Source: Minisyncoccota bacterium (GTDB taxonomy: Bacteria; Patescibacteriota; Minisyncoccia; UBA6257; JAGOQP01). Taken from it: a DNA stretch of 64,000 nucleotides. Where the stretch lies: the NCBI GenBank assembly GCA_041661795.1, contig JBAZTS010000001.1:124161-188160 (forward strand), read 5' to 3'. The notes under the pieces are model-generated. The model saw only the letters and a list, made by a program, of their open reading frames with translations. It was not told the origin of the DNA and did not search any database. The position numbers and the translations under genes were made by a program. Shown here piece by piece: positions 24,570 to 63,693 of the stretch (its first letter is position 1; each line of letters begins with the position of its first letter).

Positions 24570-25061
24570 TTAACGAACATTCATTTTTATGAGTATACGC
24601 CGCACATATCCCCAGTCAAGATTTAATTGCTTCCCTATCTCCCTATAGGAAGCACCAGAAGTTCTCATCTCTAGGGCTTTTGCTTTTTTATGTTCCATTA
24701 CAGATATTTTAACATTCCTCTTTTTGGCGTATTTACTCAATTCTGGAATTACTTTTTTAGCAATAGCATTTTTGACTATAAGATAATCGAAAATTCTTTT
24801 CAAAAAATAAAGCACATCGTCTTGTTTAGAAATATAATAAATCCAACTATCTTTCCAGTGAGATTTTCTTTTTGTGATTTTACAGACATAACCAACTTTA
24901 CTGAATTTAACTATGCCATCAAGAACCTCCTGATTTGTTTGAGATATGGCAATTCGGTATCCCTTGCCGTTGTGGCTTATACATCCCTCTCCATCAAAAA
25001 ATCCTGCTATATATTCCCATTTCATTAGGTCAATTATATCACTAATAAGTGGATACATCAA
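24570..25061 (-). mobile_element. freestanding LAGLIDADG homing endonuclease with C-terminal HTH
   Basis: Motif YIAGFFDGEGCI (the LAGLIDADG/DGEG core) near the N-terminus. C-terminal sigma-70 region-4-like HTH (ASYREIGKQLNLDWGYVRRIL). Its stop codon sits 6 nt from the tRNA-His 5' end. Confidence 0.75.
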
Positions 25062-31713: not shown

Positions 31714-33243
31714 TTATTTCTTGATGAAAAAGTTTATTCTAAAACTTATGAATCCGTTGCCTAAATCTGAAAAACTAGAGAGAGGCATATCTACCCTTTC
31801 TATTTTATCAATTAACTCAATTTTATTTTTAAAATCAAGCGCATAGGATTCCTTGGTGGTTCTAGCGCTTATTGAAGCCGGACTTTGGTTGCCTGATATT
31901 GATAACCTATCAATAGAAACATTACTTCCGATACTGGAATAAATTGAAGAGACCACATCAGATATTTTAATTATTTGTCCCTTGGCTTTAATGGCTTTAT
32001 CAACTCCAGTATTAAACTGTTCGGCTTCTTTTTTAAGAGTGTTTAAATAAGCGATGTTGTGATTGGCTGAAAGATTAGCCACATCACCGGCCAAACTCAT
32101 AGAAAAAGAATCCAAAAACACAAAAACTCCCCAATAAGCGAAAACTATTACTGATAAAGTGGCTATGATGACATTTTTCCAAATACTAAAAAAAGAAGTA
32201 ACTTGAGAATGAAAAAACTTGTTCTCGGTATCTTCGGGAGCCAAACTTATTTCTCTATCTTGTGATCTTGAAACTATTCCCCTAATAGCTGCTCCCAATG
32301 ATGCCGACCAAGAAACATCAACCGCAAAAGAATTTAAAGAGAGAGGAGATACTTCTAAAACAAAATTGTCCATAAGAATGTTTTTCACCTGCTCTTCAAT
32401 CCCCGGGGCAACAATATATATTTTTTTCAAGTTGTCTTGGAATCTACCAGAATAAAAGTTAATTACCCTATGACCTTCCTGAATTATTAAGGACTTAAAT
32501 TGGTCAAAAGATATTTCTCTCTGAGACCCATCTTTAGCAACGATCGTTTCCCAAGGAGAAAACCTATTAAAATATAAAGAACCCTCCCTCACCACCGAGA
32601 AGCTCATTCCATCGCTATTTATGTGCATTATAAAATACGAATATTTTTCATGATCTTTATTTATTGTATCTATAACTCTTACCAAAGAGGCGGCTTTTTG
32701 CTCAATAGCTAATACAGTAAAATCGGCCTGGGAAAGACAGGAAGACATGGAATTTATGATGTTTTTATCCACAAAAGAAGATAAAATTTCTGTCTCATGG
32801 ACAGATTTTCCTTGATCAGAAATATTTTGCCAATCAGAATAGGCACCAGAAAAGTTTATGGGAGAAATGACCTGCATATTTAATCTAACCGTTTCTTTAA
32901 AATCGGATTCCTTTAAAATCGGGAGTACAAAAGATTGAGTGTAAATATTAGAGTCGGATAACGTGACTATAACTGCTACTTTTTTATTTTTTCTGGGAGT
33001 AATGCTGTCGTGCAAAGTTTCTAAAGCTTTTATAAATTCTTTGGAATTTATAATACTCCCGTTTCTTAGGGCGCCTATCGGAATTTTAGTCGAAAATTTT
33101 GAAATTTTATTAGTATCAACATCTAGGATAGCAAAAAATACTCCATTGTCAGTAATTTCCATCCCTCCAATCTCTGTCTTGGGTTTGATTAGCCGTAAAA
33201 ACTTTTTTAGTACTTTCGTAATCATTTCGTATTTCGTAGCCAA
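31714..33243 (-). CDS. pilM: type IV pilus assembly protein PilM (actin-like ATPase fold) fused to a PilN-like TM/periplasmic segment
   Basis: 509 aa. N-terminal FtsA/PilM-like region, then a TM helix (IIATLSVIVFAYWGVFVFL) and a C-terminal periplasmic region. Located at the distal end of the pilBC-pilin operon. Confidence 0.55.
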   Translation of the reverse strand: MATKYEMITKVLKKFLRLIKPKTEIGGMEITDNGVFFAILDVDTNKISKFSTKIPIGALRNGSIINSKEFIKALETLHDSITPRKNKKVAVIVTLSDSNIYTQSFVLPILKESDFKETVRLNMQVISPINFSGAYSDWQNISDQGKSVHETEILSSFVDKNIINSMSSCLSQADFTVLAIEQKAASLVRVIDTINKDHEKYSYFIMHINSDGMSFSVVREGSLYFNRFSPWETIVAKDGSQREISFDQFKSLIIQEGHRVINFYSGRFQDNLKKIYIVAPGIEEQVKNILMDNFVLEVSPLSLNSFAVDVSWSASLGAAIRGIVSRSQDREISLAPEDTENKFFHSQVTSFFSIWKNVIIATLSVIVFAYWGVFVFLDSFSMSLAGDVANLSANHNIAYLNTLKKEAEQFNTGVDKAIKAKGQIIKISDVVSSIYSSIGSNVSIDRLSISGNQSPASISARTTKESYALDFKNKIELIDKIERVDMPLSSFSDLGNGFISFRINFFIKK

Positions 33244-33245
33244 AT

Positions 33246-33656
33246 TTAATTGACCGATACTTCTTCTATAGAATCAATATTAACAAATCCAGAATTATTG
33301 TCGGCTTGAAGAATTGCCTCAAATTTACTTCTTTTATCAACAGCCACCGCCTCTGAAGAGATGTCATATCTTCCACTTATATCCCTTGTGATTTGTATTG
33401 CGGTAGAAGCATTATCCAAGGTGAGAGAATAAGACCCCGATGGAAAATCTTTATCCCACAGAACCTTTAATATAGCATCGTTTATACCGGCTTTTGCAGC
33501 CATAGAAGCGTTTCTGGAAAGACGAACGCCTAACCCTTGTTGATTTAGAAAATAAGAAGCCACCAAACTAGCTATGGCCGCTTCCACCACTATAGCTCCC
33601 ATTATTAGTATTGCAGAAAGAGCAGCGACTCCTTTTTTATTATTGAGTAACTTCAT
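33246..33656 (-). CDS. hypothetical membrane-anchored protein in the pilus operon (PilO/minor-pilin-like)
   Basis: 136 aa. N-terminal basic leader plus hydrophobic helix VAALSAILIMGAIVVEAAIASLVASYF. Confidence 0.4.
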   Translation of the reverse strand: MKLLNNKKGVAALSAILIMGAIVVEAAIASLVASYFLNQQGLGVRLSRNASMAAKAGINDAILKVLWDKDFPSGSYSLTLDNASTAIQITRDISGRYDISSEAVAVDKRSKFEAILQADNNSGFVNIDSIEEVSVN

Positions 33657-33996
33657 TTTCTCTTATAGAGTTCAAAACTTGGCTTGATGAAGATAATTTT
33701 ACTATCCAAACGACTTTATCATTGTTTATTTTTATCTTGTCTTCTGGACCCCAAACTGATTCTTTAAATTTTGACAAAGCAAGATTTTGCGTTTGAGAAT
33801 CTTTATTAAGATACCAAACATTGGAGAGCGAAAGATAAGGAAATCTGGAAAGTTTGCCAAAATAAATATCTCCGGTATCAAGATAGACAGCATAATAATC
33901 ACTGCCATTGGCAGTTCCTTTCCAATAAAGAAACCCGGCCACAAAAATTAATAAGACAACTAACACAACCAACAACGCAATTATTATTTTTTTCAT
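33640..33996 (-). CDS. hypothetical membrane-anchored protein in the pilus operon
   Basis: 118 aa with a single N-terminal TM helix (IIIALLVVLVVLLIFVAGFLYW). Confidence 0.4.
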   Translation of the reverse strand: MKKIIIALLVVLVVLLIFVAGFLYWKGTANGSDYYAVYLDTGDIYFGKLSRFPYLSLSNVWYLNKDSQTQNLALSKFKESVWGPEDKIKINNDKVVWIVKLSSSSQVLNSIRENEVTQ

Positions 33997-34020
33997 ATGA
34001 TTTGATTATAAACTATTTAT

Positions 34021-35568
34021 TTATTTACTCCAGTTTAAATGAATATCATTCACCGTAGGAGAATTTCCAGAATCAGGAGAAAGGAATATTTTGTATCTAA
34101 AGTATCTGGAGTTATACAACCCAGAAAGCTTTTTAGAAATATTGCTGTTAGTGGGAGTGTAATAACTTGAACCAGTCCCATCCGAACCGACATATGTCCA
34201 GGGACCGCCTGATGAGTTGGATGTGGCAATTTGGAACTTAATCACGGTACCAGATGGTTTTGTCCCCTGCCAAAGAACACTATTTAGAGAAGCACCCCCA
34301 ACAACTTGTGAATCATAAATTAATGATGTTAAATCACCTGATATAGTAGTAGAAGCCAAAGTCAAGGATAATCCTGCGGTAATATTAGTTGAAGAGGAAA
34401 AAGTATTTATAATAGAAGAAGTTGTGGCATCTCCCACGTTTCCTCCCGACCAATCGTATTGGGAAAAAACATCATCTTTATACCGCGTCAAATAATTTGA
34501 AAACTTTAGATTTCTTCCATCCTGCCATTCAACAGCGCTAACAACTTTTTGAGTGGAAGGGTCATCTGTCCCACTGCTTGCTACTATATCGTTATTGCCG
34601 TCTCTTTGGACATTTTCTAAATAAAAATATCTGGAATATACGGCGCTGTTATAAATTTGTTTTATTTCTTGAGCGGAAAGAGCGCGGTTATAAACACGAA
34701 CATCGTCAATAAAACCATTTACATAGTAACCAGGATAGTATCCTATATTTGTTGCGGACCCAGTAGTTAAAGCCCCTGAAACGGGATTAGTTGCAGTTTG
34801 ATTTCCATCAATATACGACACTAAATTTGATCCGTCATAAGTCAACGCAAGAAAATGCCAACTACCATCAGTAACGCCCGATCCAGAATTAAAAACTTGT
34901 CTTCCTTGAGTTGCAGTGGTTACACCTGTACGTATCTGCCCCCCCGGATCTGGAACACTTATTTCAATCTGAGTACCCTGCATAAAAATGATATGATGAT
35001 CACTAGTAGAAACGCCAACTCTTTTAAACCACCCCGACACAGTAACGTATAGTGGCGGATTTGGTGGAGACGCAATACCCACATAATTACTTCCATTAAA
35101 ACTTAAACATCCACCGACTCGACAACTGGACGAAGCTGTGCGCGTTGGACTGCCATTTAAAGTTCCACTATTATAATTCCCCGAGGAATCATACGCTAAA
35201 GAACCTGCTGTTTCGTCCATTTTCCAATGTCCCACAAGTCCACTATTAACATCATTATATAGAATGCTTTCTTGGCCGGATACTGACACCGCTGCAGTGG
35301 AAGAAGAAACTATAAAATATTGATTAGCTGAACCTTTGTTTAAATCGTATATATTGTGCCAATTATTATTTGTGAATGATTCAACTTTATTGGCTAAATC
35401 CATAGCCAAAGAAGAAGCTGTCTGGTTTCCCCTATTCTCAAAATTATTTTTTATAACAGAAACAATAGCCACTGTGGCTCCTAAAATAAACATCCCTCCA
35501 ACAGCTATAGCGACTAAAACTTCCATCAAGAGCTGACCACTTTGATTTTTTATATTAATATGAATCAT
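34021..35568 (-). CDS. prepilin-type N-terminal domain protein with C-terminal LamG (concanavalin A-like lectin) domain; pseudopilin or tip-adhesin candidate
   Basis: Class III signal-like N-terminus (SGQLLMEVLVAIAVGGMFILG). LamG/Laminin_G_3 hallmarks (GHWKMDETAGS..., GWFKRVG..., DDVRVYNRALSAQEIKQIYN). Confidence 0.65.
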   Translation of the reverse strand: MIHINIKNQSGQLLMEVLVAIAVGGMFILGATVAIVSVIKNNFENRGNQTASSLAMDLANKVESFTNNNWHNIYDLNKGSANQYFIVSSSTAAVSVSGQESILYNDVNSGLVGHWKMDETAGSLAYDSSGNYNSGTLNGSPTRTASSSCRVGGCLSFNGSNYVGIASPPNPPLYVTVSGWFKRVGVSTSDHHIIFMQGTQIEISVPDPGGQIRTGVTTATQGRQVFNSGSGVTDGSWHFLALTYDGSNLVSYIDGNQTATNPVSGALTTGSATNIGYYPGYYVNGFIDDVRVYNRALSAQEIKQIYNSAVYSRYFYLENVQRDGNNDIVASSGTDDPSTQKVVSAVEWQDGRNLKFSNYLTRYKDDVFSQYDWSGGNVGDATTSSIINTFSSSTNITAGLSLTLASTTISGDLTSLIYDSQVVGGASLNSVLWQGTKPSGTVIKFQIATSNSSGGPWTYVGSDGTGSSYYTPTNSNISKKLSGLYNSRYFRYKIFLSPDSGNSPTVNDIHLNWSK

Positions 35569-36760
35569 ATAAATTTTTTACCTCTGTTGGAGAAAGAGCG
35601 CGATTATAAATACGGACGTCGTCAATTAGACCTTTAAAATTGTAACCACCCACTATAAACCAATTTCCAAAGGCCCAATACTTAGTTGTTGGCAAGGTTA
35701 GAGATGCTGGTATTCCTCCGTTAAAACCACTAAAGCCGATATCTTGACCGTTAATGTATGCTTTCAATTTATTTGCATTACCAATTTGAGTTCCATCAAA
35801 CACAATTACTATATTATTCCAACTCCCAGCACTGTAGCCAGCAGTATTAGTAAGACCATAATTATTTCCTGCATCAGATACACTATCTGCTACAAAACAG
35901 TAAAAATCGGTAGATGCTGAATTACTCTTTCGTAATATAATTTGTGAATTTCCTGATGAGCTCCAAGAAGACCAGAGCACTCCTGATGGATTGATGACCG
36001 GTTCTGAAAACCAAATAGACCAAGTAACTTTGTTAAGACCATCCACAATATTTTTATTTCCAATATCAATATAATCACTGGCCCCATTAAAACTAATCGC
36101 TCCTCCAAGTTTCCCAAACGCCCAAGTCGTACCTCCACCGTTATTTGCTGTTCCGTTATTTGAATTTCCCGACACATCCTCAAGTCCCACGGTTGTGTCA
36201 TCAGCAATGATTCCGCTTGTTCCTCCGTCAAATGGCCAATATCCTACCAAAGAATCGTCTTGAGAAACGCCTATCTTTCCCTGCGAGCTAATAGAAACAA
36301 CAGCGGTATTGCTCCCTCCTTTCATTCTAACAACCAAAGAGTCGGATAAAATTGGCTTCCCCGATATGGCTATAAAAGATATGGTCTTTGAGCTCCCGTC
36401 AACCGGACTAACCAAATCCGTTACCGGATTTAACCCACTTTCCACAACAACCGAAGAAGTTGCATAAGAGGTTCCTGAAAATATTTGATAGTAGTCAATC
36501 GAACTAGTACTGTTGGTAAACTTTATGCTCCAGCCATAACCCCCTTCCTGATTAATTGACCTGTTTTGCGTATTTCTTATGGCTTCAACAATATTTTCCA
36601 CATCCAAATCAAAACTGTGCCTGTTTTTATAGTTTCCAAAACCTATAAAAGCGACTCCGGCCATAACGATTACAATTCCCACGGATATCAAAAGCTCAAC
36701 CATGGTAAAGGATTTCTTGCAAGCAAAAAATCTTTTTGTTTTTCCTTTTTTGTCTTTCAT
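35555..36760 (-). CDS. prepilin-type N-terminal domain protein with C-terminal LamG domain
   Basis: Leader MKDKKGKTKRFFACKKS, then FTMVELLISVGIVIVMAGVAF. LamG hallmarks (LVGYWPFDGGTSG..., WSIWFS, DDVRIYNRALSPTEVKNLY). Confidence 0.65.
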   Translation of the reverse strand: MKDKKGKTKRFFACKKSFTMVELLISVGIVIVMAGVAFIGFGNYKNRHSFDLDVENIVEAIRNTQNRSINQEGGYGWSIKFTNSTSSIDYYQIFSGTSYATSSVVVESGLNPVTDLVSPVDGSSKTISFIAISGKPILSDSLVVRMKGGSNTAVVSISSQGKIGVSQDDSLVGYWPFDGGTSGIIADDTTVGLEDVSGNSNNGTANNGGGTTWAFGKLGGAISFNGASDYIDIGNKNIVDGLNKVTWSIWFSEPVINPSGVLWSSWSSSGNSQIILRKSNSASTDFYCFVADSVSDAGNNYGLTNTAGYSAGSWNNIVIVFDGTQIGNANKLKAYINGQDIGFSGFNGGIPASLTLPTTKYWAFGNWFIVGGYNFKGLIDDVRIYNRALSPTEVKNLYDSY

Positions 36761-36778
36761 ATAAAATACAAACTACTA

Positions 36779-37987
36779 TTAAAAACTGCTTGTCAGCTGA
36801 TACACTGGAACAATAACTGCAAGAGCTATAGTTCCGACTACAATTCCTATAAGCATCAACATAATGGGTTCTATAAAAGCCACCAGAGATTTGACTCCGC
36901 CTTCTATTTCGTTAGAGTAGAAATCTCCCAATGTTAATAAAATGCTTTCTATGTGTCCGGATTTTTCCGAAACGGCTATTAAATTAGATACTACTTTGGG
37001 AAAAATCGGTTCTTTTTTAAATGCTTCTCCAACAGTCAACCCTTTTGATATTCCTTCCCTTGAAATTCTCATCATGGCATTTTTCAACTCAGGCAAAGCA
37101 ACCGATTCGGCTGTAATTTCTATAGCATCAAGTATAGGAAGACCAGAGGATAGTAAAGATGAAAGAGTTGTGGCAAATCTTTGTAAAGCAATTTGGTGAA
37201 TAACTTTTCTGATAACCGGAGTTTTTAGGGCAATATCAAACATAATTTTTCTTCCCGGTAAAGTTTTCAAGAAGAAGTATCCCCCGCCAATAAAAAATGC
37301 GGCTAATAACAACAAAAGCCAGACAAGATTATCTCCTACAAAAAGTCCCACAGTAAAAACAATTCTTGAAAATGTCGGCGGTTTCATGCCACCCGAGAGG
37401 AAAACATTGGCAATTTTAGGAAGAGAGAAACTAACCAAAAGCACAAGAATTAATATAGAAGTGAAGAAAAGAATAACAGGATAAGTCAAAGAGGCCTTTA
37501 TTTTTCCCGTTAACTCTTTCTCTTTTTCCAAAGAAACACTTAGTTGTTCAAAGACATTTTCTAAGTTACCGGAAACTTCTCCAGCTTTTATTAAATTAAC
37601 AAAAACTTGAGAAAAAGTTTTTGGGTATTTAGCAAAAGTAGTATAAAATGGCTGGCCTTTTTCAAGATTAGCCCTGACTTCCAACAGAAAAGATTTAACA
37701 GCCGGTTTGTCAAAATCTTCAACCAATATATCTATGGCCTTAAAAAGATCTGTACCAACTTTTAACATCAGAGAAAGATATTTGGTTAAAAAAACTTTAT
37801 CCTCTAGGGTGATTTTCTGGCCAGTTAGATATTTTAAATTAATACCTGATGTTTTTATCGGCTTTATAATAATTGGCCGAAGTCCCTGGGAAGCAATAAA
37901 AGCCAAAGCGTCGTTGGTTGTTTGACCTTCCGTTTCCCCCTCTACCATTCTATTGTCGGGCCTAATGGCCTTGTAGTAAAACCTCAT
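36779..37987 (-). CDS. pilC: type IV pilus inner-membrane platform protein PilC (GspF family)
   Basis: Two GspF repeats with three TM segments. 402 aa. Adjacent to the pilB ATPase. Confidence 0.85.
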   Translation of the reverse strand: MRFYYKAIRPDNRMVEGETEGQTTNDALAFIASQGLRPIIIKPIKTSGINLKYLTGQKITLEDKVFLTKYLSLMLKVGTDLFKAIDILVEDFDKPAVKSFLLEVRANLEKGQPFYTTFAKYPKTFSQVFVNLIKAGEVSGNLENVFEQLSVSLEKEKELTGKIKASLTYPVILFFTSILILVLLVSFSLPKIANVFLSGGMKPPTFSRIVFTVGLFVGDNLVWLLLLLAAFFIGGGYFFLKTLPGRKIMFDIALKTPVIRKVIHQIALQRFATTLSSLLSSGLPILDAIEITAESVALPELKNAMMRISREGISKGLTVGEAFKKEPIFPKVVSNLIAVSEKSGHIESILLTLGDFYSNEIEGGVKSLVAFIEPIMLMLIGIVVGTIALAVIVPVYQLTSSF

Positions 37988-37991
37988 GATG

Positions 37992-39704
37992 TTATTCCCT
38001 AATAACTCTCAGTACTTCCTCTATGCTCGTCATTCCTAAAGACGACTTTTTTAACCCATCTTCAAACATTGTTATCATTCCATTTTTTCTGGCAGTCATT
38101 AAAAGCAAATCTAAAGAAAAATTTGGATCAATTATTATTTTTCTTATATCTTCGTCAACTTCAAATGCTTCGTAAATTCCCATTCTACCTTTATACCCGG
38201 TTCCTCCGCAGGCCTTGCAACCCTTTCCTCTATAAAAAGTTTTGGGCATCTGAACATCAGGAAGATTTAAATCTTTTATCTGTATTTTTAATGAAGAAAC
38301 AAAGTTTTCCTCCGGAACAAAAGATTCAATACAGTCCACACATATTTTTCTTAACAATCTTTGGGCAACAACTAAATTTAAAACGGCAGCTGCCAAAAAG
38401 GGAGGGACTTTCATATCAATAAGACGAGGAACGGCTGTTGGGGCATCGTTAGTGTGGAGTGAGGACAAAAGTAAGTGACCGGTCAAGGCGGCATTAATAC
38501 CTATTTGGGCGGTTTCTTCATCTCTAATTTCACCAACCATTATAATGTTTGGATCTTGTCTTAAAATTGACCTTAAGCCAGAAGCAAAAGTTATCCCCGC
38601 AAGCGGATTTATTTGTATTTGATTTATATACCTGATGTTGTATTCAATAGGATCTTCAATGGTAACAATGTTAACTTGTGACCTGTTGAGCATATTTAAA
38701 ATTGAGTAAAGAGTCGTGGTTTTACCAGAACCGGTAGGACCGGTAACTAAAATCATCCCATATGTCTTTTTTATATTTTTTTCCACAATTTTAGCGGTTT
38801 CCTCCAACATTCCAAGCTCAGTTAAAGAAAGAGGTCTTTGAGTTCCGGGTAAAAGACGCATAACAATTTTTTCCCCATATAATGTAGGAATAACCGAAAT
38901 ACGAACATCTATCACAACAGAACCCGATTTATATCTGAAACGTCCATCTTGAGGTTTTTGATGCTCGTCAACTTTAAGAGCGCCAAGAAGCTTAATTCTT
39001 GCAATAATCGCCGAATGGACTTCTTTGGGGATTTCTAAAATTTCATAGAGTATCCCGTCAACTCTAAATCTTACCAAAATTTGGTCCTCTAAAACCTCTA
39101 AATGAACATCGGAGGAATTTAGAGAAGTAGCATATGAGAGCATATTGTTAACTATGTCAACTATGGGAATTTGAGTAGCCGCCTCTTCTTCTTTTGCGGA
39201 AGATATCTTTCTTTCCAGAGATGTTTTTATATTATCCTCTATGATTTTTTTAAAATCCTCAGTCAGTTGAGAGCCATAATAGGAAAATCCTTTAGCCAAA
39301 TCTTCTGGAGAAGCCAAGAAAGGCCTTATTTTAGCCGATATTTTCTTTTCCAAAAACTCAATTGTGGGAAGATCGGTTGGATCTTCCATGGCTACGTTTA
39401 TAGTTCCATCGGCATCTTTTAAAAAAGCAATAACGTTTCTTTCTCGGGCAAATTTTTCATCTACTTTTTCCAATACCGACTTATCTATAGTTCTTAAACC
39501 AAGATTAGCTCTCTCCACCCCAAAATAAGAGGATAGAAAATTGTAAAGATAATCCCTGCTAACAAAACCCTTAGAGATAAGCACATCTCCTATGTTCTGA
39601 TTCATTCTTGACGATTCATCAACAGCTTTATCAAATTGGTCTTCGCTTATAAGACCCTGATCAATGAGTATCTCTTTTATTTTTTGAGATGGGATTCTTA
39701 ACAT
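37992..39704 (-). CDS. pilB: type IV pilus assembly ATPase PilB (GspE family)
   Basis: N-terminal GSPII_E_N domain. Walker A GPTGSGKTT. Asp box, Walker B, and the His box HTNDAPTAVPRLIDM. Confidence 0.9.
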   Translation of the reverse strand: MLRIPSQKIKEILIDQGLISEDQFDKAVDESSRMNQNIGDVLISKGFVSRDYLYNFLSSYFGVERANLGLRTIDKSVLEKVDEKFARERNVIAFLKDADGTINVAMEDPTDLPTIEFLEKKISAKIRPFLASPEDLAKGFSYYGSQLTEDFKKIIEDNIKTSLERKISSAKEEEAATQIPIVDIVNNMLSYATSLNSSDVHLEVLEDQILVRFRVDGILYEILEIPKEVHSAIIARIKLLGALKVDEHQKPQDGRFRYKSGSVVIDVRISVIPTLYGEKIVMRLLPGTQRPLSLTELGMLEETAKIVEKNIKKTYGMILVTGPTGSGKTTTLYSILNMLNRSQVNIVTIEDPIEYNIRYINQIQINPLAGITFASGLRSILRQDPNIIMVGEIRDEETAQIGINAALTGHLLLSSLHTNDAPTAVPRLIDMKVPPFLAAAVLNLVVAQRLLRKICVDCIESFVPEENFVSSLKIQIKDLNLPDVQMPKTFYRGKGCKACGGTGYKGRMGIYEAFEVDEDIRKIIIDPNFSLDLLLMTARKNGMITMFEDGLKKSSLGMTSIEEVLRVIRE

Positions 39705-39743
39705 TTGTTTTTATTTTAACACAAAAAAGAAACTAAATAAAAT

Positions 39744-39775
39744 AAAAACACCCCACGTTACGAGGGGTGTTTTTT
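39744..39775 (-). terminator. intrinsic terminator after the major pilin gene (ACACCCCTCGTAACGTGGGGTGT + T-run)
   Basis: An 8-bp GC-rich stem followed on the minus strand by TTTTTATTTT. Confidence 0.6.
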
Positions 39776-39785
39776 ATTATTACAA

Positions 39786-40319
39786 TTACAAATTTAATCC
39801 CGGGTCAGTGCCGACTTCATAGATAGTCGTTGAATCTCCACCGTCGTTAAGTTCTTTGTTTGTAGTATATTTGCTACTTTCCAATTCAGTATTCACCTCA
39901 AATGTCTTATTTGTATTATCTCCTTTGTAGACATAGTGAAGCGTAGCACTAGTAACCGGATCTCTTGGTAAAGCAGAGATAGGAGAGCTTGGGTTGGCCA
40001 TGGTTGAAAAATCAACAGCAAACCATCCCGTGCCGTCAATAGCATAGATAAGTCTTTCTGTGGATGCTCCCAAAGAATACCCGGTAGTACCGCTTGATGA
40101 AAATGGACCGGCGGTAAACACAGGAGTAGTTGTAGCCACCAAATACAAAGAGACGGCATTTTTCATAGCATCAAAATCAGCCAATCTTTGCGTGTCTCTG
40201 GCTTGAGCTAAAAGTTCTGCTGGGTTTAAGACGACAACAACAGCCGCGGTTAAAACCGCTAATATTCCGATAACAACCAACAATTCAACTAAAGTAAATC
40301 CTTTTTTTGATTTTTGCAT
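39786..40319 (-). CDS. pilA: type IV major pilin (PilA-like)
   Basis: MQKSKKG|FTLVELLVVIGILAVLTAAVVVV is a class III prepilin leader plus hydrophobic alpha-1 helix. 177 aa. It has its own promoter and terminator. Confidence 0.7.
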   Translation of the reverse strand: MQKSKKGFTLVELLVVIGILAVLTAAVVVVLNPAELLAQARDTQRLADFDAMKNAVSLYLVATTTPVFTAGPFSSSGTTGYSLGASTERLIYAIDGTGWFAVDFSTMANPSSPISALPRDPVTSATLHYVYKGDNTNKTFEVNTELESSKYTTNKELNDGGDSTTIYEVGTDPGLNL

Positions 40320-40387
40320 ATTTTATTAATTATTAGTTTAAATGTGAATAAACATAACCGACCTTATTATTTGTTTTTTCAATGATT

Positions 40388-40425
40388 TTATTATATCACC
40401 ACCACAAAAAAAAGAAATGGCTCTG
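40388..40425 (-). promoter_or_regulatory. putative extended -10 promoter (TGATATAAT) for pilA
   Basis: Minus-strand TGGTGATATAAT at 40390..40398, about 70 nt upstream of the pilA start. A possible -35 lies ~20 nt further upstream. Confidence 0.4.
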
Positions 40426-40443
40426 TGGATAACTGTCAAAATT

Positions 40444-40812
40444 TTACTTATTCAAAAAACCTAAGATATTACCAACTAAATCTTCTATGGACGTCTTAGC
40501 TTTTATAAAGTATTCAACCGCTCCCAGTTCTTGACCCTTTTGAATGTCTTCTGGTTGTCCCAAGTTTGAAATTATAATAATCGGAGCGTTTTGAAGTTGC
40601 GGGTCTTGGCGCATACCTTCCATAACTTCAAACCCTGACTTTTTGGGTAAAATTAAATCAAGCAAAATAAGATCGGGTTTGTTATCTTTAAGTGAAAGCA
40701 ACGCCTCTTCTCCGTCTTTAGCGTGTATAACTTCAACCCCCTCTTTTGTGAGGCGGTTTTTTAAAAGAGAGGACAAAAACGGGTCATCCTCAACAAGAAG
40801 TATTTTTTTCAT
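40444..40812 (-). CDS. single-domain response regulator (CheY-like receiver; PilH-like)
   Basis: MKKILLVEDDP...DLILLDLILP...K motif set: phospho-acceptor Asp in LLDL and a conserved Lys. The start is taken as the internal MKKILLVEDD. Confidence 0.8.
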   Translation of the reverse strand: MKKILLVEDDPFLSSLLKNRLTKEGVEVIHAKDGEEALLSLKDNKPDLILLDLILPKKSGFEVMEGMRQDPQLQNAPIIIISNLGQPEDIQKGQELGAVEYFIKAKTSIEDLVGNILGFLNK

Positions 40813-40984
40813 AACATTATCGCTCATAGTTCATTTATTATACAAAAATCCACAATAAAAACAACTGGCTGGTTGTTAGTTAAGAGTTGATAATTATTTT
40901 GAAAACTTTTTTAGTTGCCCCAGCCGAAACTTTAGGATCCTCGGCCAACTCCATTCCGCCAAAGGCGGATCGATCAATAATCTT

Positions 40985-42530
<1,546 letters not shown>

Positions 42531-46180: not shown

Positions 46181-47503
46181 TTAGTATAAAGAATATTTAC
46201 CGTCTAAATATTTTTCTACACTTTCGCGTTCATTGTCAGAAAGAGCTCTGTTATATACTATAATTTCGGCCATTTGTGAATTAGCACTGAGTGTTCCACC
46301 AATTGTATAAATTTCGTCGGTAAGATTAGGAACGGCGTTACAAGAATCACAGGTATAGAAAGACCCAATTGTTCCGTTATATCTCAATATTGGGTCCCTA
46401 TATCTATCTCCACTATTATTTGTCACAGAAAAAATACCGAAATTACTATAATCAAACCCCGTATTTCTCATGACTGAATATCCATCGGTATAACCGATAA
46501 CTCCATCAAAAGGGCCATTCCTATAATAAAGAATCCTTGTTGTTCCTCCTGCTCCAGAAGAAGATCCAAAGGAAAAGAATTTTACCCCATCTTCATACCA
46601 AGTCAAACTTTTTCCAACAAAGAACACTGAAGAAGCTCCAGAGCCACTTACTCCCAAAGCTCCTCCAGCCAAAGAATCATTTGCTCCGTCAAATTGGACT
46701 ACCGACTTTCCATTAACCTGGTTGGTTTTAAAAAGCGGTTTATAACTTACATTACTTTGTATGGCATCATTATTGTTTCCAGATAGATCATCCCAAGTTG
46801 AAATTGGATCATTATTAGAAAGATTTAGGGAGTCGGCTTTAAGCCATAATTTTGGGTCATTAGGTGACAAAAAAAGATTCATGCCAGCTTCAAATCTGAC
46901 GGGATCTCCACCTCCGTCACCAGAAGCAACTTCTTTTATCTTTTTTTCTGATTCCAAAAGAGCGGTCAAAATATATCCACCATTACTATCCACAGCATAA
47001 GCATAAAAATTAGATGTGGATACGGCATTGGTTTCATCTATAGGAAGATCAGATATAAAAGGTCCAACCGATGTTATTCTGGTAAAATCAATTGGAATCC
47101 AACCCGTTCCATCAACATTTTTAAAGGTTGAAGTAGGGGCACATTTGTAAGACCACCCAGAAATTGCGGGAAGTCCTAAGTTTGCGCATGTTGTAGAAGA
47201 ATCGGGAATGGAAATATATAAAGTATTAACGCTACCCAAAGACAAATTACCCAGTCCCGAGTATTTATATTTTTCAACGGCAATTTTAAGGTTGTTTAAA
47301 TCCGATATTCTTCTGGCATCCTTGCTTTCTTGTATAAAAGAAACTGGATTTAAAATAATAACTGTGGCCGCCGAAAGAACGATTATAATACCAACTGTTG
47401 TTAAAAGCTCACCCATAGTGAAGGAACGGGTATCGTATACCGTATACCGTATACCGGGATAGAGCAAATGCTTCTTAAGTTTAGATTTTATAAATTCAAT
47501 CAT
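46181..47503 (-). CDS. prepilin-type N-terminal domain protein with C-terminal LamG domain (mosaic paralog A)
   Basis: Leader MIEFIKSKLKKHLLYPGIRYTVYDTRS, then FTMGELLTTVGIIIVLSAATVII. LamG C-terminus (AEIIVYNRALSDNERESVEKYL). The leader contains a GTATACC x3 heptamer array. Confidence 0.65.
   Translation of the reverse strand: MIEFIKSKLKKHLLYPGIRYTVYDTRSFTMGELLTTVGIIIVLSAATVIILNPVSFIQESKDARRISDLNNLKIAVEKYKYSGLGNLSLGSVNTLYISIPDSSTTCANLGLPAISGWSYKCAPTSTFKNVDGTGWIPIDFTRITSVGPFISDLPIDETNAVSTSNFYAYAVDSNGGYILTALLESEKKIKEVASGDGGGDPVRFEAGMNLFLSPNDPKLWLKADSLNLSNNDPISTWDDLSGNNNDAIQSNVSYKPLFKTNQVNGKSVVQFDGANDSLAGGALGVSGSGASSVFFVGKSLTWYEDGVKFFSFGSSSGAGGTTRILYYRNGPFDGVIGYTDGYSVMRNTGFDYSNFGIFSVTNNSGDRYRDPILRYNGTIGSFYTCDSCNAVPNLTDEIYTIGGTLSANSQMAEIIVYNRALSDNERESVEKYLDGKYSLY
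47430..47456. repeat. tandem heptamer array (GTATACC)x3, 21 nt, in-frame inside the 5' coding region of the pilin-LamG gene
   Basis: GTATC-GTATACC-GTATACC-GTATACC seen directly. It encodes ...PGIRYTVYDTRS... in the leader peptide. Confidence 0.75.
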
Positions 47504-49729: not shown

Positions 49730-51055
49730 TTAATATAAAGCGTATTTGTTATTTAAATATTTTTCTACGCTTTGACGTTCTCCTGTGGTTAATGTGTGAT
49801 CATAAAGAATAATTTCAGCAATTTGTACGTTAGAAAAACCTTCCACATTACTAGCTCCTTGCGAAGCTCCGATTAAATATTCGTCGTCGTCAGTATTTGA
49901 AGTACCAGCACAACCATCAGCAGCGTTGTAACTATAAGCCGCTCCGTTGACATAGAGACCGCCAGAACAGTTAGTTCCTCCAGTGGAATCTTGTTGATCA
50001 ATTAATTTAAAAGAAGTTTGATCAAATCCTTCTCCGAATTTAATCCAAGCACCTCCCATCGATCTCCAGAAACTCAACGGAGCAGTTCTAAATCCGAAAT
50101 ATTTAAATTGTCCGTCTGCTCCGGTTGAAGAACCTAAATAAACAACAGCCACAGGATCTCCATACCAACTCAAACTTTTAGCTACTATAAATAAAGTTTG
50201 ACCTCTAGTACCAGAAATTCCTGTTGGTCCTCCAATTAGATAATTATCAATTCCATCAAATTGAACTACCGAATTTCCATTAACTTGATTGGTTTTTAAG
50301 ATCGGCTTATAACTTACATTACTTTGTACGGCATTATTATTATTTCCAGACATATCGTTCCAAGTTGAAATTGGATCATTATCAGAAATCCCCAAGGAAT
50401 CCGCCTTTAACCATAATCTGGGACCATTAGATACTAAGGAGAGGTCAGTTCCTTTTTCAAATCTAATTGGATCTCCACCTCCGTCATTAGAAGCAGCAGA
50501 AATAAATTTATTTGATTCTATAAGAGCTGCTAGTTTCCAAGATCCTCCTGGAATATACGTATAATAAAGTCCATCTGAAGCAGAGTTAGTGGGATCAATA
50601 GGAAGAGATGAAAGTTGAATAACGGATTGAGTAGTAAAATTGACAGGAATCCAACCTGTTCCATCTGTCTTGATAAGGTTAGTTATAGTAACACAATTAT
50701 ATATGTATCCCGTAGGTAAAGAAGGAAGACCAAGATTGTCGCATGTTGCTGAAGAATCAGGGATGGAGACATAGACGGTAAGAGATGTTCCAAAGGAAAG
50801 GGTGGGGTCTATGACTTCTAGGTTCTGGAGGGAGTTATTGAGTAAAGAGAGGTCTTGCATTCTACGAGAGTCCCTAGTTTGAGCAAGATAATCAGCAGGG
50901 TTGAGGACGATAATGACTGCGGTTGTGAGTACGGCAAGAATACCTATAACAACGAGGAGTTCTACAAGGGTGAAGGAACGGGAATTGTATACCGTAGACC
51001 GTATACAGGGATAAGAAAAATACTTCTTTAGTTTGGATTTAATAGATTTATTCAT
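49730..51055 (-). CDS. prepilin-type N-terminal domain protein with C-terminal LamG-like domain (mosaic paralog B)
   Basis: Leader MNKSIKSKLKKYFSYPCIRSTVYNSRS, then FTLVELLVVIGILAVL. The N-terminal third is near-identical to the 62398..63693 protein. The middle segment is near-identical to the 46181..47503 protein. Confidence 0.65.
   Translation of the reverse strand: MNKSIKSKLKKYFSYPCIRSTVYNSRSFTLVELLVVIGILAVLTTAVIIVLNPADYLAQTRDSRRMQDLSLLNNSLQNLEVIDPTLSFGTSLTVYVSIPDSSATCDNLGLPSLPTGYIYNCVTITNLIKTDGTGWIPVNFTTQSVIQLSSLPIDPTNSASDGLYYTYIPGGSWKLAALIESNKFISAASNDGGGDPIRFEKGTDLSLVSNGPRLWLKADSLGISDNDPISTWNDMSGNNNNAVQSNVSYKPILKTNQVNGNSVVQFDGIDNYLIGGPTGISGTRGQTLFIVAKSLSWYGDPVAVVYLGSSTGADGQFKYFGFRTAPLSFWRSMGGAWIKFGEGFDQTSFKLIDQQDSTGGTNCSGGLYVNGAAYSYNAADGCAGTSNTDDDEYLIGASQGASNVEGFSNVQIAEIILYDHTLTTGERQSVEKYLNNKYALY
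50987..51007. repeat. degenerate heptamer array GTATACC-GTAGACC-GTATACA in the 5' coding region of pilin-LamG paralog B
   Basis: Seen in sequence. It encodes ...PCIRSTVYN.... Further GTATAC motifs lie in the promoter region 51061..51090. Confidence 0.65.
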
Positions 51056-52092: not shown

Positions 52093-54075
52093 TTATTTTA
52101 ATCTGTTTTCATAATACCACTCAAACACTTTCTTGGCTACCGGAACAGCATTTAAACTACCCTCCTTGGCGTCTTCTATCAGCACTAAGACAGCTATTTG
52201 TTGAGGTATCGCAGATTCACCCTGATCAAGACGTGGATTGTCGCCGATATTCTCATCTGCGCTTATCTGCGTTGTTTCCTTTGGAAGCAAGTTGTAGCCA
52301 ACAAAAAATGCATTTACTTTGGCATTATTTTCTATCTGAGCACTTCCGGTTTTGGCGGCAATTTTTAAAGGAATACCATTCAATATATGAGAGGTTCCAT
52401 ATTCTTTTTCTACTCCATCCATCATTCCTTTTTCAACTTCGGAAAAATTATTAACATCAGAAAACTCCATCAAATCATAAGACGGATTTTTAGTAAAAAC
52501 AGATTCTTGTAAATTATTTTTAATTTCCTTTACTAAATAAGGATTGAAAAGTTTCCCCTTAGAATTAATGGCTGATATATATCTTAAAAGAGCTAACGGG
52601 CTAATCATTAAATCTCCCTGACCTATGGAAACGTTATAAGTATCTCCTATTCTCCAAATTTGACCCGTTCTTTCCTCTTTTTTCTCCGGATCTGGTAGGA
52701 CCCCAACCGATTCGCCGATAATATCTATACCTGTCTTTTTATCTAATAAAAACTTTTTCCAATAATCTATTAACCTATAAACCCCAAGACCCTTTAGATT
52801 TTCTCCGCCCAAGGCGGATCCGCCTTTGGAGGAAAATCCTCCACCAACTTCGTAGAAGTAAACATTGCTGGAACGAGCCAGGGCTGAATACAAATTAACC
52901 CAGCCATGTGCTTTCCAATCAACAAATCTTGAGGGTTTGTCTGGAAAATAAGGATTGGGAATTTCTATGTAACCGGCAGAAAAAATCGAATAAAAAGGAT
53001 CAACTACTTTTTCTTCTAAAGCCCCAAAAGCCACCAACGGCTTGATGGTAGACCCCGGGCTGTATATTCCAGAAATTATTCTATTAAATGTCGGCCTGAG
53101 AGAATCGGAAAAAAGAGAGGATGACAAGTTATTATTGTCAAAACTTGGCAAACTCACCATAGAAAGAATTTCACCGTTTGATGGATCCATAATAAGCCCA
53201 GCTCCTGATTTTCTGCCCAAAAAATTAAGTTGATTTTTAAGTTCCGTATAAAAGAACTTTTGTAAATCAGCATCTAAAGTAGTGGTCAAACTACTGCCCG
53301 AAACAGGATCGGAAAATTTTTTCTCTTCAATAGTATTTCCCAAAGCGTCTTTGAAAACCACCGTGCTTCCTTTTTTACCTCTAATATATTTATCGTAATA
53401 TGCCTCTAAACCACTTTTGCCTATTTCATCATTTAAATCAAAACTTTCGTCAGTGTCTATATCATTACGACTCACTAGTCCTACATAACCTAATACGTGT
53501 GAAAAAACCTCTCCGTCAATATATCTCCTGGAGAAATTGTTTTCTACCAGAAGAAAATCAAAATTGAGATTCTTTATAGCCAAGCTCTGTTCCAAAGATA
53601 TATTTTTTAAAAGAGTAAGATGCGATTGTCTCTCTAAATTAGCCGATAGAATTGAATCTTTTATGGTCTGTTTATCAAAAGGAACTATTATGTTTATTTT
53701 TTCTAAAAGATTATCCAATTCATCTCTTCTTTTTAGAAGTTGAGAAAGAGATAAGACCGCGTCAAAACTGGGATTATTGGCAACCAAAGATGTCCCATAT
53801 CTGTCATAGATAACTCCCCTTGGAGCTGTTAAAATAATTTCTTGTCCGGCATTGGCCAAAGCTCTAATTTTATAAAAATCATCACCAAATCCAATGTAAA
53901 TAAATCTAAAAGCAAACAACAGAATAACCGCAAAGATTACGAGCCCAACAATTTTGAACACAGAAAAAGAGACGGGTTTTTCCACGGCTTCTAAACCTTG
54001 GGAAAAATCGTCTAAAATCGCATCCTCTAAAAAAATCTCTTTTCTAGCCATAGTCCTAAGAAAAAGAACAAACAA
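52093..54075 (-). CDS. mrdA: penicillin-binding protein 2 (elongasome transpeptidase)
   Basis: N-terminal TM anchor. Transpeptidase motifs STIKP (SxxK), SSN-like, and KTGSA (KTG). Directly downstream of mreBCD. Contains an in-frame palindromic insert at 52805..52832 encoding KGGSALGGE. Confidence 0.8.
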   Translation of the reverse strand: MFVLFLRTMARKEIFLEDAILDDFSQGLEAVEKPVSFSVFKIVGLVIFAVILLFAFRFIYIGFGDDFYKIRALANAGQEIILTAPRGVIYDRYGTSLVANNPSFDAVLSLSQLLKRRDELDNLLEKINIIVPFDKQTIKDSILSANLERQSHLTLLKNISLEQSLAIKNLNFDFLLVENNFSRRYIDGEVFSHVLGYVGLVSRNDIDTDESFDLNDEIGKSGLEAYYDKYIRGKKGSTVVFKDALGNTIEEKKFSDPVSGSSLTTTLDADLQKFFYTELKNQLNFLGRKSGAGLIMDPSNGEILSMVSLPSFDNNNLSSSLFSDSLRPTFNRIISGIYSPGSTIKPLVAFGALEEKVVDPFYSIFSAGYIEIPNPYFPDKPSRFVDWKAHGWVNLYSALARSSNVYFYEVGGGFSSKGGSALGGENLKGLGVYRLIDYWKKFLLDKKTGIDIIGESVGVLPDPEKKEERTGQIWRIGDTYNVSIGQGDLMISPLALLRYISAINSKGKLFNPYLVKEIKNNLQESVFTKNPSYDLMEFSDVNNFSEVEKGMMDGVEKEYGTSHILNGIPLKIAAKTGSAQIENNAKVNAFFVGYNLLPKETTQISADENIGDNPRLDQGESAIPQQIAVLVLIEDAKEGSLNAVPVAKKVFEWYYENRLK

Positions 54076-54497
54076 GATAATAAGCCATTATAAACAAATT
54101 CCACAACAAAACCAAAGATATTAAGATGCTCAAATCCTCCAAAAATAAACCAAAAAATAACTTGAAAGATAAAAACAAACAAAATAAAAATCCATAAATC
54201 ACGTCTGAAAAACAAAAATTTAAGAGCAAAAAACGTCAATATCCCGGCAATAATAAGAAATACTATTTCACCAGAAAAGAAAGGAGAAAATTTGACTAGC
54301 CACGATCCCAGTAGAAGAAAGAGTAAAAAATCAAAAACATCGGTTATAAAAAAACCCAAAGACACAACCAAAATTAATCCCAAGTTGGCTTTTACATTTA
54401 GAAAAGAAAAATCAAGATAAAATATAAGAAGAAATAAAAACAAAAAAGCCAATCCTGATAATAAATTTTTTCTCTGAAAAATATGCTTATTGGCCAT
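54027..54497 (-). CDS. mreD: rod shape-determining protein MreD (polytopic membrane protein)
   Basis: 156 aa, highly hydrophobic with multiple helices. Positioned in the mreB-mreC-[mreD]-pbp2 order. Confidence 0.5.
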   Translation of the reverse strand: MANKHIFQRKNLLSGLAFLFLFLLIFYLDFSFLNVKANLGLILVVSLGFFITDVFDFLLFLLLGSWLVKFSPFFSGEIVFLIIAGILTFFALKFLFFRRDLWIFILFVFIFQVIFWFIFGGFEHLNIFGFVVEFVYNGLLSCLFFFLGLWLEKRFF

Positions 54498-62350: not shown

Positions 62351-62397
62351 AATCTGTGTCAGATTTATGTTAGTGCTTTTACCTAAAATATGCAAAT

Positions 62398-63693
62398 TTA
62401 TCTAGTTGCGTTGTATAAAGCTTTGGCTTCTGCGGCAGAGATCGCTCTGTTATAAATATGAACATCATCTATATACCCATCAAATGTCCTGGTGGGAGTT
62501 GACATATTTCCTATGGCTAGACTTGACCCGGCATCAGATACCCGGCTACCAGCTCCGTTAGTTGCAGAAAGAACAGCTAAATTGCCATTAATATAATGAA
62601 TAACATTTCCAGAACAGGTGTCAGAACCATTCCATGTAATTACAAAATGGTTCCATTGATTTAATGGCGTTCCGGAACTAACAGCACAAGAAAGATTTGT
62701 GGACGAATAATCAACTGCAAAATTAATTGTTCCCGCAGCATTTATTGTTACAGTATAACCATTCACAATCGCGCTACTGGTTGTTTTGTCCAATACTCTG
62801 CCTAAAGTTTGCCCACCGCTTTTTGGATAAACCCAAGCAGAAAGAGTCATTGCCGAAAGATCATCTAAAGAACTATCCGAACCAACATTTACAACATCGT
62901 CTATTTTATCAAAAGAAACGGCGCCTCCGACTTTTCCTTGTACCCAAGTCATTCCCGTTCCATTGACATTTCCAGCCGTTCCACTATTAACAGTGCCTGA
63001 AGAATTTTCCAAGCCGGACGTTGAACTATTTGCTATTGACCCTGATGTTCCTCCGTCAAACTTCCAGTATCCTACAAGACCAGTATCTTTTATCGGACTT
63101 ATGGTCTTGTCTGTTCCAATTTCATACATGGAATATGAATCCCCTCCATCAGAGGATACTCTGTCTTTATCTCCTGATAATCTGTATTTATTGGATTCTA
63201 AGATAGTATTTATTTCCCAGGAACCTCCGGGTGTATATGTATAATAAAGTCCATCTGTAGGGGTGTTGGTAGGATCTATGGGTAAAGCAGAGAGTTGAAC
63301 AATAGATTGAGTAGTAAAGTTGACAGGAACCCAACCTGTACCATCTGTTTTGGTGAGATTAGCTGTAGAGACACAGTTATATGTATATCCTGAGGGGAGA
63401 TTGGGTAATCCTAAGGTTCCACAGGTAGAAGAAGCATCATCTGGTATGGAGATATAGACAGTAAGAGAGGTTCCAAAGGATATGGTAGGATCTATAGCTT
63501 CTAGGTTCTGGAGGGAGTTGTTTAAGAGGGAGAGGTCGTTTAACCTACGAGAGTCCCTGGCTTGAGCAAGATAATCAGAAGGATTGAGGATGATAACGAC
63601 TGCTGTAGTAAGGACTGCTAGGATACCTATGACGACGAGGAGTTCTACAAGGGTGAAAGAATTATTTTGTTTTACTAATTTAAATTTTTCCAT
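62398..63693 (-). CDS. prepilin-type N-terminal domain protein with C-terminal LamG domain (mosaic paralog C)
   Basis: MEKFKLVKQNNS|FTLVELLVVIGILAVL. The N-terminal ~200 aa are near-identical to paralog B. LamG C-terminus (GYWKFDGGTSG..., LSAWVYPKS, DDVHIYNRAISAAEAKALYN). Confidence 0.65.
   Translation of the reverse strand: MEKFKLVKQNNSFTLVELLVVIGILAVLTTAVVIILNPSDYLAQARDSRRLNDLSLLNNSLQNLEAIDPTISFGTSLTVYISIPDDASSTCGTLGLPNLPSGYTYNCVSTANLTKTDGTGWVPVNFTTQSIVQLSALPIDPTNTPTDGLYYTYTPGGSWEINTILESNKYRLSGDKDRVSSDGGDSYSMYEIGTDKTISPIKDTGLVGYWKFDGGTSGSIANSSTSGLENSSGTVNSGTAGNVNGTGMTWVQGKVGGAVSFDKIDDVVNVGSDSSLDDLSAMTLSAWVYPKSGGQTLGRVLDKTTSSAIVNGYTVTINAAGTINFAVDYSSTNLSCAVSSGTPLNQWNHFVITWNGSDTCSGNVIHYINGNLAVLSATNGAGSRVSDAGSSLAIGNMSTPTRTFDGYIDDVHIYNRAISAAEAKALYNATR

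Follow-up and report, generated by a model that had tools for sequence, protein, structure and literature searches.

Which parts of the type IV pili (T4P) of Candidate Phyla Radiation (CPR) bacteria, or Patescibacteria, might contact their hosts? These bacteria are mostly uncultured episymbionts, and their T4P are thought to mediate host attachment. The question is raised by a gene cluster in a 64 kb stretch of DNA (hereafter the window) from a Minisyncoccota bacterium (GenBank contig JBAZTS010000001.1), in which genes for two large pilin-like proteins with LamG domains are found among those for a pilus assembly machinery. Our analyses indicate that this cluster probably codes for a conserved, monoderm-type type IVa pilus (T4aP) with lectin-like LamG minor pilins at its predicted tip, which would mediate adhesion to host glycans.

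A T4P gene cluster with LamG-containing minor pilins

The cluster comprises nine open reading frames (ORFs), all on the minus strand between positions 31714 and 40827 and separated by short gaps or overlapping, in agreement with the operon order proposed in an initial reading made from the DNA alone (hereafter the sequence-only reading). In the order of transcription, from 40827 to 31714, they code for a receiver-only response regulator, PilA, PilB, PilC, and proteins of 401, 515, 118, 136 and 509 residues. The genes for the 401- and 515-residue proteins overlap by 14 nt. Hidden Markov model (HMM) searches gave family or profile assignments for eight of the nine proteins, all except the 118-residue protein, and the Pfam and NCBIfam matches bear out the identification of the locus as a T4P cluster. 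Its features are as follows (↓, cleavage site).

40444..40827, minus strand: stand-alone response-regulator receiver, 127 residues (Response_reg, E 2.9e-22)
40380..40400, minus strand: extended -10 promoter-like element TGATATAAT upstream of pilA (motif about 40395-40387), read in the sequence
39786..40319, minus strand: PilA, putative major pilin, 177 residues, class III signal KKG↓FTLVELL (N_methyl, E 1e-8; TIGR02532, E 4e-7)
39751..39765, minus strand: intrinsic terminator-like hairpin after pilA, GC-rich CCCCTCGTAACGTGGGG followed by a T-run
37992..39704, minus strand: PilB extension ATPase, 570 residues, N-terminal MshEN domain (T2SSE, E 3.5e-119)
36779..37987, minus strand: PilC platform protein, 402 residues, two T2SSF repeats (T2SSF, E 2e-52)
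35555..36760, minus strand: modular minor pilin 1, 401 residues, signal KKS↓FTMVELL (Laminin_G_3, E 4e-18)
34021..35568, minus strand: modular minor pilin 2, 515 residues, signal SG↓QLLMEVLV (Laminin_G_3, E 3e-27)
33640..33996, minus strand: small membrane protein, 118 residues, N-terminal transmembrane helix
33246..33656, minus strand: third minor pilin in K/PilX position, 136 residues, KKG↓VAALS (pilin fold in the AlphaFold2 model)
31714..33243, minus strand: PilM-PilN fusion, 482-509 residues, start uncertain (PilM_2, 27.8 bits for a cut-off of 27)

The LamG modular pilins

The available evidence supports the assignment of both large proteins as pilin-like proteins with LamG domains, coded in the minor-pilin position after pilC as had been proposed: each has a Laminin_G_3 match, and Glu5 and the signal motifs are conserved. 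The 401-residue protein consists of a GspH/ComGD-like pilin module of approximately 165 residues followed by a C-terminal LamG domain (residues about 225-395). Weak matches to ComGD (E 6e-4) and GspH (E 8e-3) cover residues 15-95, and pilins are among its matches to PDB sequences (E 0.008-0.35). Its syntenic orthologues all carry a [G/A/S]↓FT(L/M)xE motif, with conserved F+1 and E+5 residues.

The 515-residue protein weakly matches PilV (E 1.9e-3), and in an alignment of 40 homologues its G-1, Q+1 and E+5 residues are nearly invariant. The public gene call for an identical protein begins at Met15, and because of this start placement the annotated 501-residue version lacks the class III signal motif. 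The generalised motif S/G-FT-[LM]-VELL of the sequence-only reading is right as regards Glu5, which is present in both large proteins, but it fits only the 401-residue one, the other having SG↓QLLME. The AlphaFold2 model of the 515-residue protein (predicted local distance difference test (pLDDT) score of 88) shows an unbroken helix (residues 10-68) followed by short strands, the LamG domain (about 105-308), three long strands (310-361) and a beta-rich domain (365-515). Foldseek comparisons paired this model with ConA-like lectin folds, including domain 4 of AbnA (5hon, TM-score 0.73), as well as with the receptor-binding domains of clostridial neurotoxins.

PF13385 (LamG) modular pilins have already been catalogued (PMC8179133). 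Both proteins harbour the grafted module by which modular pilins are recognized (PF13385, E 4e-18 and 3e-27, respectively).

The confidently modelled C-terminal beta-rich domain of the 515-residue protein has no Pfam family. It is missing from the shorter members of the family (~440 residues), and the longer ones (~690-750 residues) have an extra insertion of ~170 residues within it. A segment of the 515-residue protein amounting to 20-24% of its length, not necessarily in this domain, is shared with the non-pilin, 6-bladed beta-propeller proteins P0082, P0084 and P0106.

The TafC family (NF052521) was rejected as an assignment for the LamG proteins, with scores of 48.1 and 28.3 bits for a cut-off of 410 and matches confined to the LamG region. 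TafC is one of the subunits that make up the Tat-dependent fimbriae of haloarchaea (PMC11821415).

The small proteins of the cluster

The sequence-only reading counted two small membrane proteins downstream of the LamG pilins, a description that suits the 118-residue protein; the 136-residue protein is better described as a third minor pilin. Its AlphaFold2 model (pLDDT 93.9) consists of a helix (residues 6-67) and a five-stranded antiparallel sheet, a textbook pilin fold. Glu is missing from position +5, residue 25 is a conserved Glu, and the family profile aligns with a PilX_N-like protein from Planctomycetota (locus L083, see below) with an hhalign probability of 92.6% (E 4e-7). From the fold, the absence of Glu5 and this match, we assign it to the K/PilX type of minor pilins, as the third such protein of the cluster. 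It would correspond to the capping subunit without Glu5 that characterizes tip complexes of the HIJK/PilABC type. The family is represented by 311 clusters at 50% identity and has no Pfam assignment; Pfam scans of 55 of its members yielded a single weak PilX_N match, and a PDB profile search returned only spurious transporter matches. The PDB structure with the highest TM-score (0.42-0.47, E 0.2) is the Streptococcus sanguinis minor pilin PilA (7o5y).

The 118-residue protein harbours an invariant YxAVYLxTGDxYFGKLSxFP core, and its family (24 homologous clusters or members) has no Pfam or PDB match. Its homologues adjoin genes for LamG or other pilin-like proteins in five independent contexts (L001, L003, L084, L035 and L085). 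We considered it as a possible PilO, but its sequence does not support this assignment: it has no PilO match and leaves no room for a coiled-coil after the transmembrane helix. In L085 (6404-11646), the homologue is found beside a 287-residue protein with a faint N_methyl match and a 1041-residue Peptidase_S74 protein. The S74 peptidase domain (IPR030392) is listed among pilin-grafted modules (PMC8179133).

Major pilin and assembly machinery

The PilB-type ATPase and the PilC platform protein of a type IVa machinery were both identified by Pfam matches, and PilA, which starts with a class III signal peptide, would be the major pilin. The N_methyl score of PilA is 34.8 bits for a cut-off of 21.2, and its G-1, F+1 and E+5 residues are all present. 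No pilin encoded in the window is shorter, the Glu5-less 136-residue protein aside, and its gene has a promoter-like site and a terminator of its own; we consider it the putative bulk subunit of the pilus. Both of these elements had been noted in the sequence-only reading and are indeed present, but the extended -10 element is only suggestive as a promoter, because a generic consensus scan found sites no more numerous than in shuffled sequence. The G+C content of the window is low, at ~35%.

PilB scores 527.7 bits with TIGR02538 (PilB), under the NCBIfam equivalog cut-off of 675.65, and is therefore a divergent member. Its residues 11-58 match NF053729, an MshE-type cyclic-di-GMP-binding motif, with 43.9 bits, above the cut-off of 38; by eye, the first residue of the motif is Lys, where Arg is usual. 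The response regulator retains its phospho-acceptor residues, as read from the translation (D13/D14, D57, S87 and K109), and an alternative start at 40812 would give a protein of 122 residues. A response regulator gene is located directly upstream of pilA or pilB in L001, L005-L008, L010 and L053.

The last protein of the cluster combines an actin-like PilM domain, a transmembrane helix (residues ~360-385) and a PilN-like C-terminal domain of ~125 residues. The identical protein is named PilM at NCBI, and public gene calls begin downstream of the start used here, giving 482 or 503 residues instead of 509. PilM_2 is matched by 7 of 10 orthologues of the fusion (best E 7e-13), and the profile of the fusion family retrieves the PilM proteins of Myxococcus xanthus and Thermus thermophilus from the PDB (3jc8 and 2ych, E about 5e-13). 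The assignment of the PilN half is weakly supported: PilN (PF05137) is matched by five of the ten orthologues (best E 9e-4), and the window protein itself has no match. This layout corresponds to that of GspL, and CPR PilM has been described as having "the GspL domain" (PMC6744442). A fused pilMN has also been described in Clostridioides difficile (Melville & Craig 2013, as cited in PMC6916266). The fusion is real but not unusual, since it is found in C. difficile and in the Planctomycetota locus L083 (PilN, E 8e-8).

The sequence-only reading called the operon complete, which it is not as far as the window goes: PilD, PilT and a recognizable PilO were not found there. It had itself reported no secretin, pilD or pilT, and our searches agree. 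A tblastn search with PilB revealed no second T2SSE ATPase in the window that might be PilT, and Pfam scans of the other ORFs (all those of at least 141 residues, plus a 278-residue ORF at 458-1294) gave no Peptidase_A24 (PilD) and no Secretin match. These other ORFs are housekeeping genes for ribosomal proteins, tRNA synthetases, DnaE, GyrB, MreB/C, PBP2 and others. In CPR bacteria, the PilD and PilT genes can lie apart from the pilus cluster. Both are reported to be widespread in these organisms (PMC6744442), and the prepilin peptidase and the retraction ATPase would have to be encoded elsewhere in the genome. CPR T4P lack PilQ, and the cells have no outer membrane (PMC6744442, PMC6916266); the missing secretin and PilP are expected for this reason. 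The fusion and the missing pilP, both initially regarded as atypical, are, like the missing secretin, to be expected of a monoderm-like CPR cell (PMC6744442, PMC6916266), and the fusion is known elsewhere.

Conservation and module variation

Proteins identical to those of the cluster come from a Candidatus Paceibacterota metagenome-assembled genome. The whole arrangement is syntenic in the Parcubacteria sequence AP024682.1 (L001). The conserved order extends to rpmE (L31), to the genes for the release factor and the response regulator, and to a downstream gene for a trypsin-PDZ protease; a 2 kb gene-free gap matches the position of the 16S gene found in the window. It is also syntenic in one further contig. 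The core formed by the response regulator, pilA, pilB, pilC and the two LamG pilin genes recurs in Paceibacter, Microgenomatus and other CPR metagenome-assembled genomes (MAGs), with 55-60% identity between PilB proteins. The scan of a genome collection with the 515-residue protein family was dominated by the conserved patterns flanking LamG; it retrieved 80 loci, most of which code for unrelated LamG proteins in many phyla, and approximately ten were useful.

In the 515-residue protein family, the LamG core has a mean pairwise identity of 22% and many indels, whereas every other segment is at 44-64%; this variability fits what might be expected of a ligand-recognition surface. In a Patescibacteria MAG (L010, 5795-9925), the position of the 401-residue protein is occupied by a 1376-residue pilin (MRG↓FTLVEVMVV) with many repeated segments. 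In tblastn searches, this protein has no LamG match, and only its N-terminal pilin module matches the 401-residue protein. The cargo thus differs between lineages, and this case points to a swapping of modules on a conserved pilin stem.

In the Planctomycetota locus L083 (4389-15770), the order is pilB, pilC, genes for three small pilins, a LamG pilin, a PilX_N-like protein, PilM-PilN and a 195-residue protein in PilO position, and then a secretin gene. This locus is a diderm counterpart of the CPR gene order, and its gene order maps the 136-residue protein to the K position and PilM-PilN to the GspL position. The LamG pilin of L083 is 895 residues long and combines LamG with YWTD (LDL-receptor class B) repeats.

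Comparison with characterized systems

The closest characterized analogue is the PilA-PilB-PilC tip complex of S. sanguinis, in which the minor pilin PilC carries a ConA-like, glycan-binding lectin module of solved structure (PMC9934059). As in our case, the S. sanguinis T4aP is specified by a monoderm cluster without a secretin. Its minor pilins are likewise three in number: two are modular, each with a bulky module for adhesion, and the third is small and devoid of Glu5; one of the modules is of the ConA-like lectin superfamily (PMC9934059, PMC8179133). Unlike S. sanguinis, which has one lectin and one vWA pilin, both modular pilins here carry LamG and there is no vWA domain; moreover, one LamG domain is internal rather than terminal and is followed by an extra C-terminal domain. 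Here, PilM and PilN are fused, PilO, PilD and PilT are not in the cluster, a response regulator and the 118-residue protein are encoded in it, and the small pilin is a minimal K-type protein. Beyond these domains, there is no significant sequence similarity between the two systems.

Among CPR episymbionts, the Saccharibacteria offer another parallel, as they require minor pilins of lectin-like type to bind their hosts, and sugars inhibit this binding (PMC11623550). Like the cluster described here, the T4P of Nanosynbacter lyticus TM7x includes a small major pilin and large minor pilins (PilX1/PilX2) whose C-terminal domains are lectin-like and which have been implicated in binding to the host (PMC11623550). 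However, TM7x belongs to a different CPR class, its PilM, PilN and PilO are separate proteins, and PilT and PilD are encoded in its locus. In PilX2, moreover, a beta-propeller takes the place of LamG, and the likeness is one of description.

The order of the genes, for the ATPase, the platform protein and H-like, I/J-like, K-like and L-like proteins, is also that of the HIJK/GspL components of type II secretion systems (T2SS) and diderm T4aP. The subunit in K position similarly lacks Glu5, and PilM-PilN has the GspL architecture. In contrast with those systems, only three minor subunits are recognizable here, with HMM scores far below family cut-offs, the K-like protein has no GspK alpha-domain, and there is no secretin, GspM/PilO or GspC/PilP. 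C. difficile, for its part, keeps PilO, unlike the present cluster.

Proposed assembly and function of the pilus

In the model that we favour, PilB, PilC and the GspL-like PilM-PilN fusion would form the membrane assembly machine. The three minor pilins encoded between pilC and pilMN would be an H-like protein with a C-terminal LamG domain, an I/J-class protein with an internal LamG and an extra beta domain, and a small K/PilX-type protein without Glu5. These would assemble first in the membrane and prime filament assembly, with the Glu5-less subunit capping the complex; PilA would then polymerise underneath, leaving the LamG modules at the tip, where both domains would be displayed as adhesins for glycans of the host-cell surface. 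A lectin-bearing tip complex, as suggested in the sequence-only reading, is the most likely role of the minor pilins by analogy with S. sanguinis PilABC (PMC9934059).

Our data show the gene identities, a pilin fold or pilin motif in each of the three minor pilins, the LamG folds and the synteny, whereas the tip location, glycan binding and host-attachment role are deduced by analogy with HIJK complexes and with the S. sanguinis tip complex. Several results count against the model. The HMM check of the two large proteins gave weak pilin-family matches (ComGD, GspH and PilV), but with N_methyl they score 15.8 bits (401-residue protein) and 15.0 bits (515-residue protein), below the cut-off of 21.2; several of their homologues carry PF07963. 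The processing of the 401-residue protein is putative, given its Ser residue at -1. Ser at -1 is rare as a prepilin cleavage-site residue, and Laminin_G_3 is also found in non-lectin proteins. Local hhalign comparisons of the N-terminal module of the 515-residue protein with the Planctomycetota H, I, J and K proteins, to place it as I (PilV) or J (PilW), yielded a best probability of 34%. The Foldseek support for the 136-residue protein as a pilin is statistically non-significant, and PilT, PilO and PilD are all absent from the window.

Three other explanations deserve consideration. It is rather unlikely, but the least improbable of them, that the LamG domains are not glycan lectins and instead bind host proteins or other envelope components, or act structurally or in the manner of chaperones. 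The Laminin_G_3 superfamily is a broad one, among the closest folds are the HC domains of clostridial neurotoxins, which bind both gangliosides and protein receptors, and the glycan-lectin role is deduced from the match between folds. For a lectin role speak the good fold match to domain 4 of AbnA, solved with ligand (5hon, TM-score 0.73), the binding of glycans by S. sanguinis PilC via its ConA-like module (PMC9934059) and the inhibition of Saccharibacteria host binding by sugars (PMC11623550). Glycan binding aside, the LamG proteins might not be tip subunits at all: they might be scattered along the filament, or be held in the membrane as a short pseudopilus or as anchored adhesins, with the pilin helix as the anchor. 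We find this unlikely. The LamG genes are located between pilC and pilMN and their products have weak H/V-type HMM matches, as would core minor pilins; the genes beside them include one for a K-type pilin without Glu5; and a shaft could hardly accommodate modules as bulky as 25-50 kDa (PMC9934059). A location in the filament body is nevertheless possible if the linker is flexible (PMC8179133), and the three further long pilins described below, with modules 38-40% identical to PilA, could co-polymerise along the shaft.

The least probable of these alternatives seems to be that the machine serves mainly for DNA uptake, as a competence pilus, or for secretion, as a T2SS-like pseudopilus, and not for adhesion. 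In its favour, PilB matches GspE with 510 bits, nearly its score of 528 with PilB, the best match of PilC is GspF, and PilM-PilN has the architecture of GspL; in addition, the 401-residue protein weakly matches ComGD, and CPR bacteria are naturally competent (PMC10187176). However, GspD, which a T2SS requires, is lacking, no Secretin domain having been found in any scanned ORF of the window, and there is no outer membrane to cross (PMC6744442). PilM and PilN are T4aP markers (PMC6916266), and two lectin-fold modules suggest surface binding rather than DNA binding. Adhesion, competence and secretion are in any case not mutually exclusive. The Pam pilus of CPR bacteria (bioRxiv 10.64898/2026.03.03.709456), a donor-strand-exchange system, is unrelated to the cluster and was discarded.

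The cluster illustrates no new principle, given that both tip complexes and minor pilins with lectin modules were known before. The new points are modest, namely the hypervariable LamG core, the 118-residue partner protein and the Ser or Ala residue at the cleavage site. A bolder possibility, which we put forward tentatively and with some doubt, is that the pair of LamG pilins and the Glu5-less pilin form a conserved host-recognition tip complex of Patescibacteria, that LamG hypervariability and module swapping set which host a given CPR lineage can attach to, and that the 118-residue protein is a dedicated accessory factor in the assembly of these oversized subunits and a new T4P component. 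As an example from the Paceibacterota, the locus is clean and widely conserved, and it brings together the likely host-binding parts and a minimal machinery (PilB, PilC and PilM-N) in a single 9 kb unit. This makes it convenient for structure prediction, heterologous expression, glycan-binding tests and the prediction of host ranges from genomes.

Additional pilins and neighbouring features

Three additional pilins are encoded in the window, scattered among housekeeping genes.

62398..63693, minus strand: extra modular pilin, 431 residues, NNS↓FTLVELL (N_methyl, E 7e-6; Laminin_G_3, E 2.7e-25)
49730..51055, minus strand: extra long pilin, 441 residues, C-terminal domain without Pfam family (N_methyl, E 3e-6; tblastn)
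46181..47503, minus strand: extra long pilin, 440 residues, motif TRS↓FTMGELL (46% identical to the 441-residue pilin, its paralogue)

All three have PilA-like modules 38-40% identical to PilA and C-terminal extensions of ~230 residues. The 431-residue protein has a full PilA-like module (40% identity to PilA over 195 residues) and a C-terminal LamG domain; the C-terminal domain of the 440-residue protein, like that of its paralogue, has no Pfam family. Ser replaces Gly at -1 in four of the seven pilin-like proteins of the window (the 401-, 431-, 441- and 440-residue proteins). Together with the Gly, Ala or Ser residues in the orthologues of the 401-residue protein, this suggests a prepilin peptidase that may have a relaxed specificity at -1.

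Directly upstream of the response regulator gene and the pil cluster, and on the same strand, is a complete 16S rRNA gene (40984-42530, minus strand, 1403 bits). No 23S or 5S gene accompanies it anywhere in the window. The minus strand also harbours a rod-shape gene set coding for two MreB paralogues, MreC and a PBP2-type transpeptidase (61340-62395, 55173-56213, 54487-55173 and 52093-54075), a full set in an ultrasmall CPR genome. Finally, a free-standing LAGLIDADG homing-endonuclease-like ORF of 163 residues (24570-25061, minus strand) is located in a tRNA-rich stretch, 7 nt from a tRNA-His gene.

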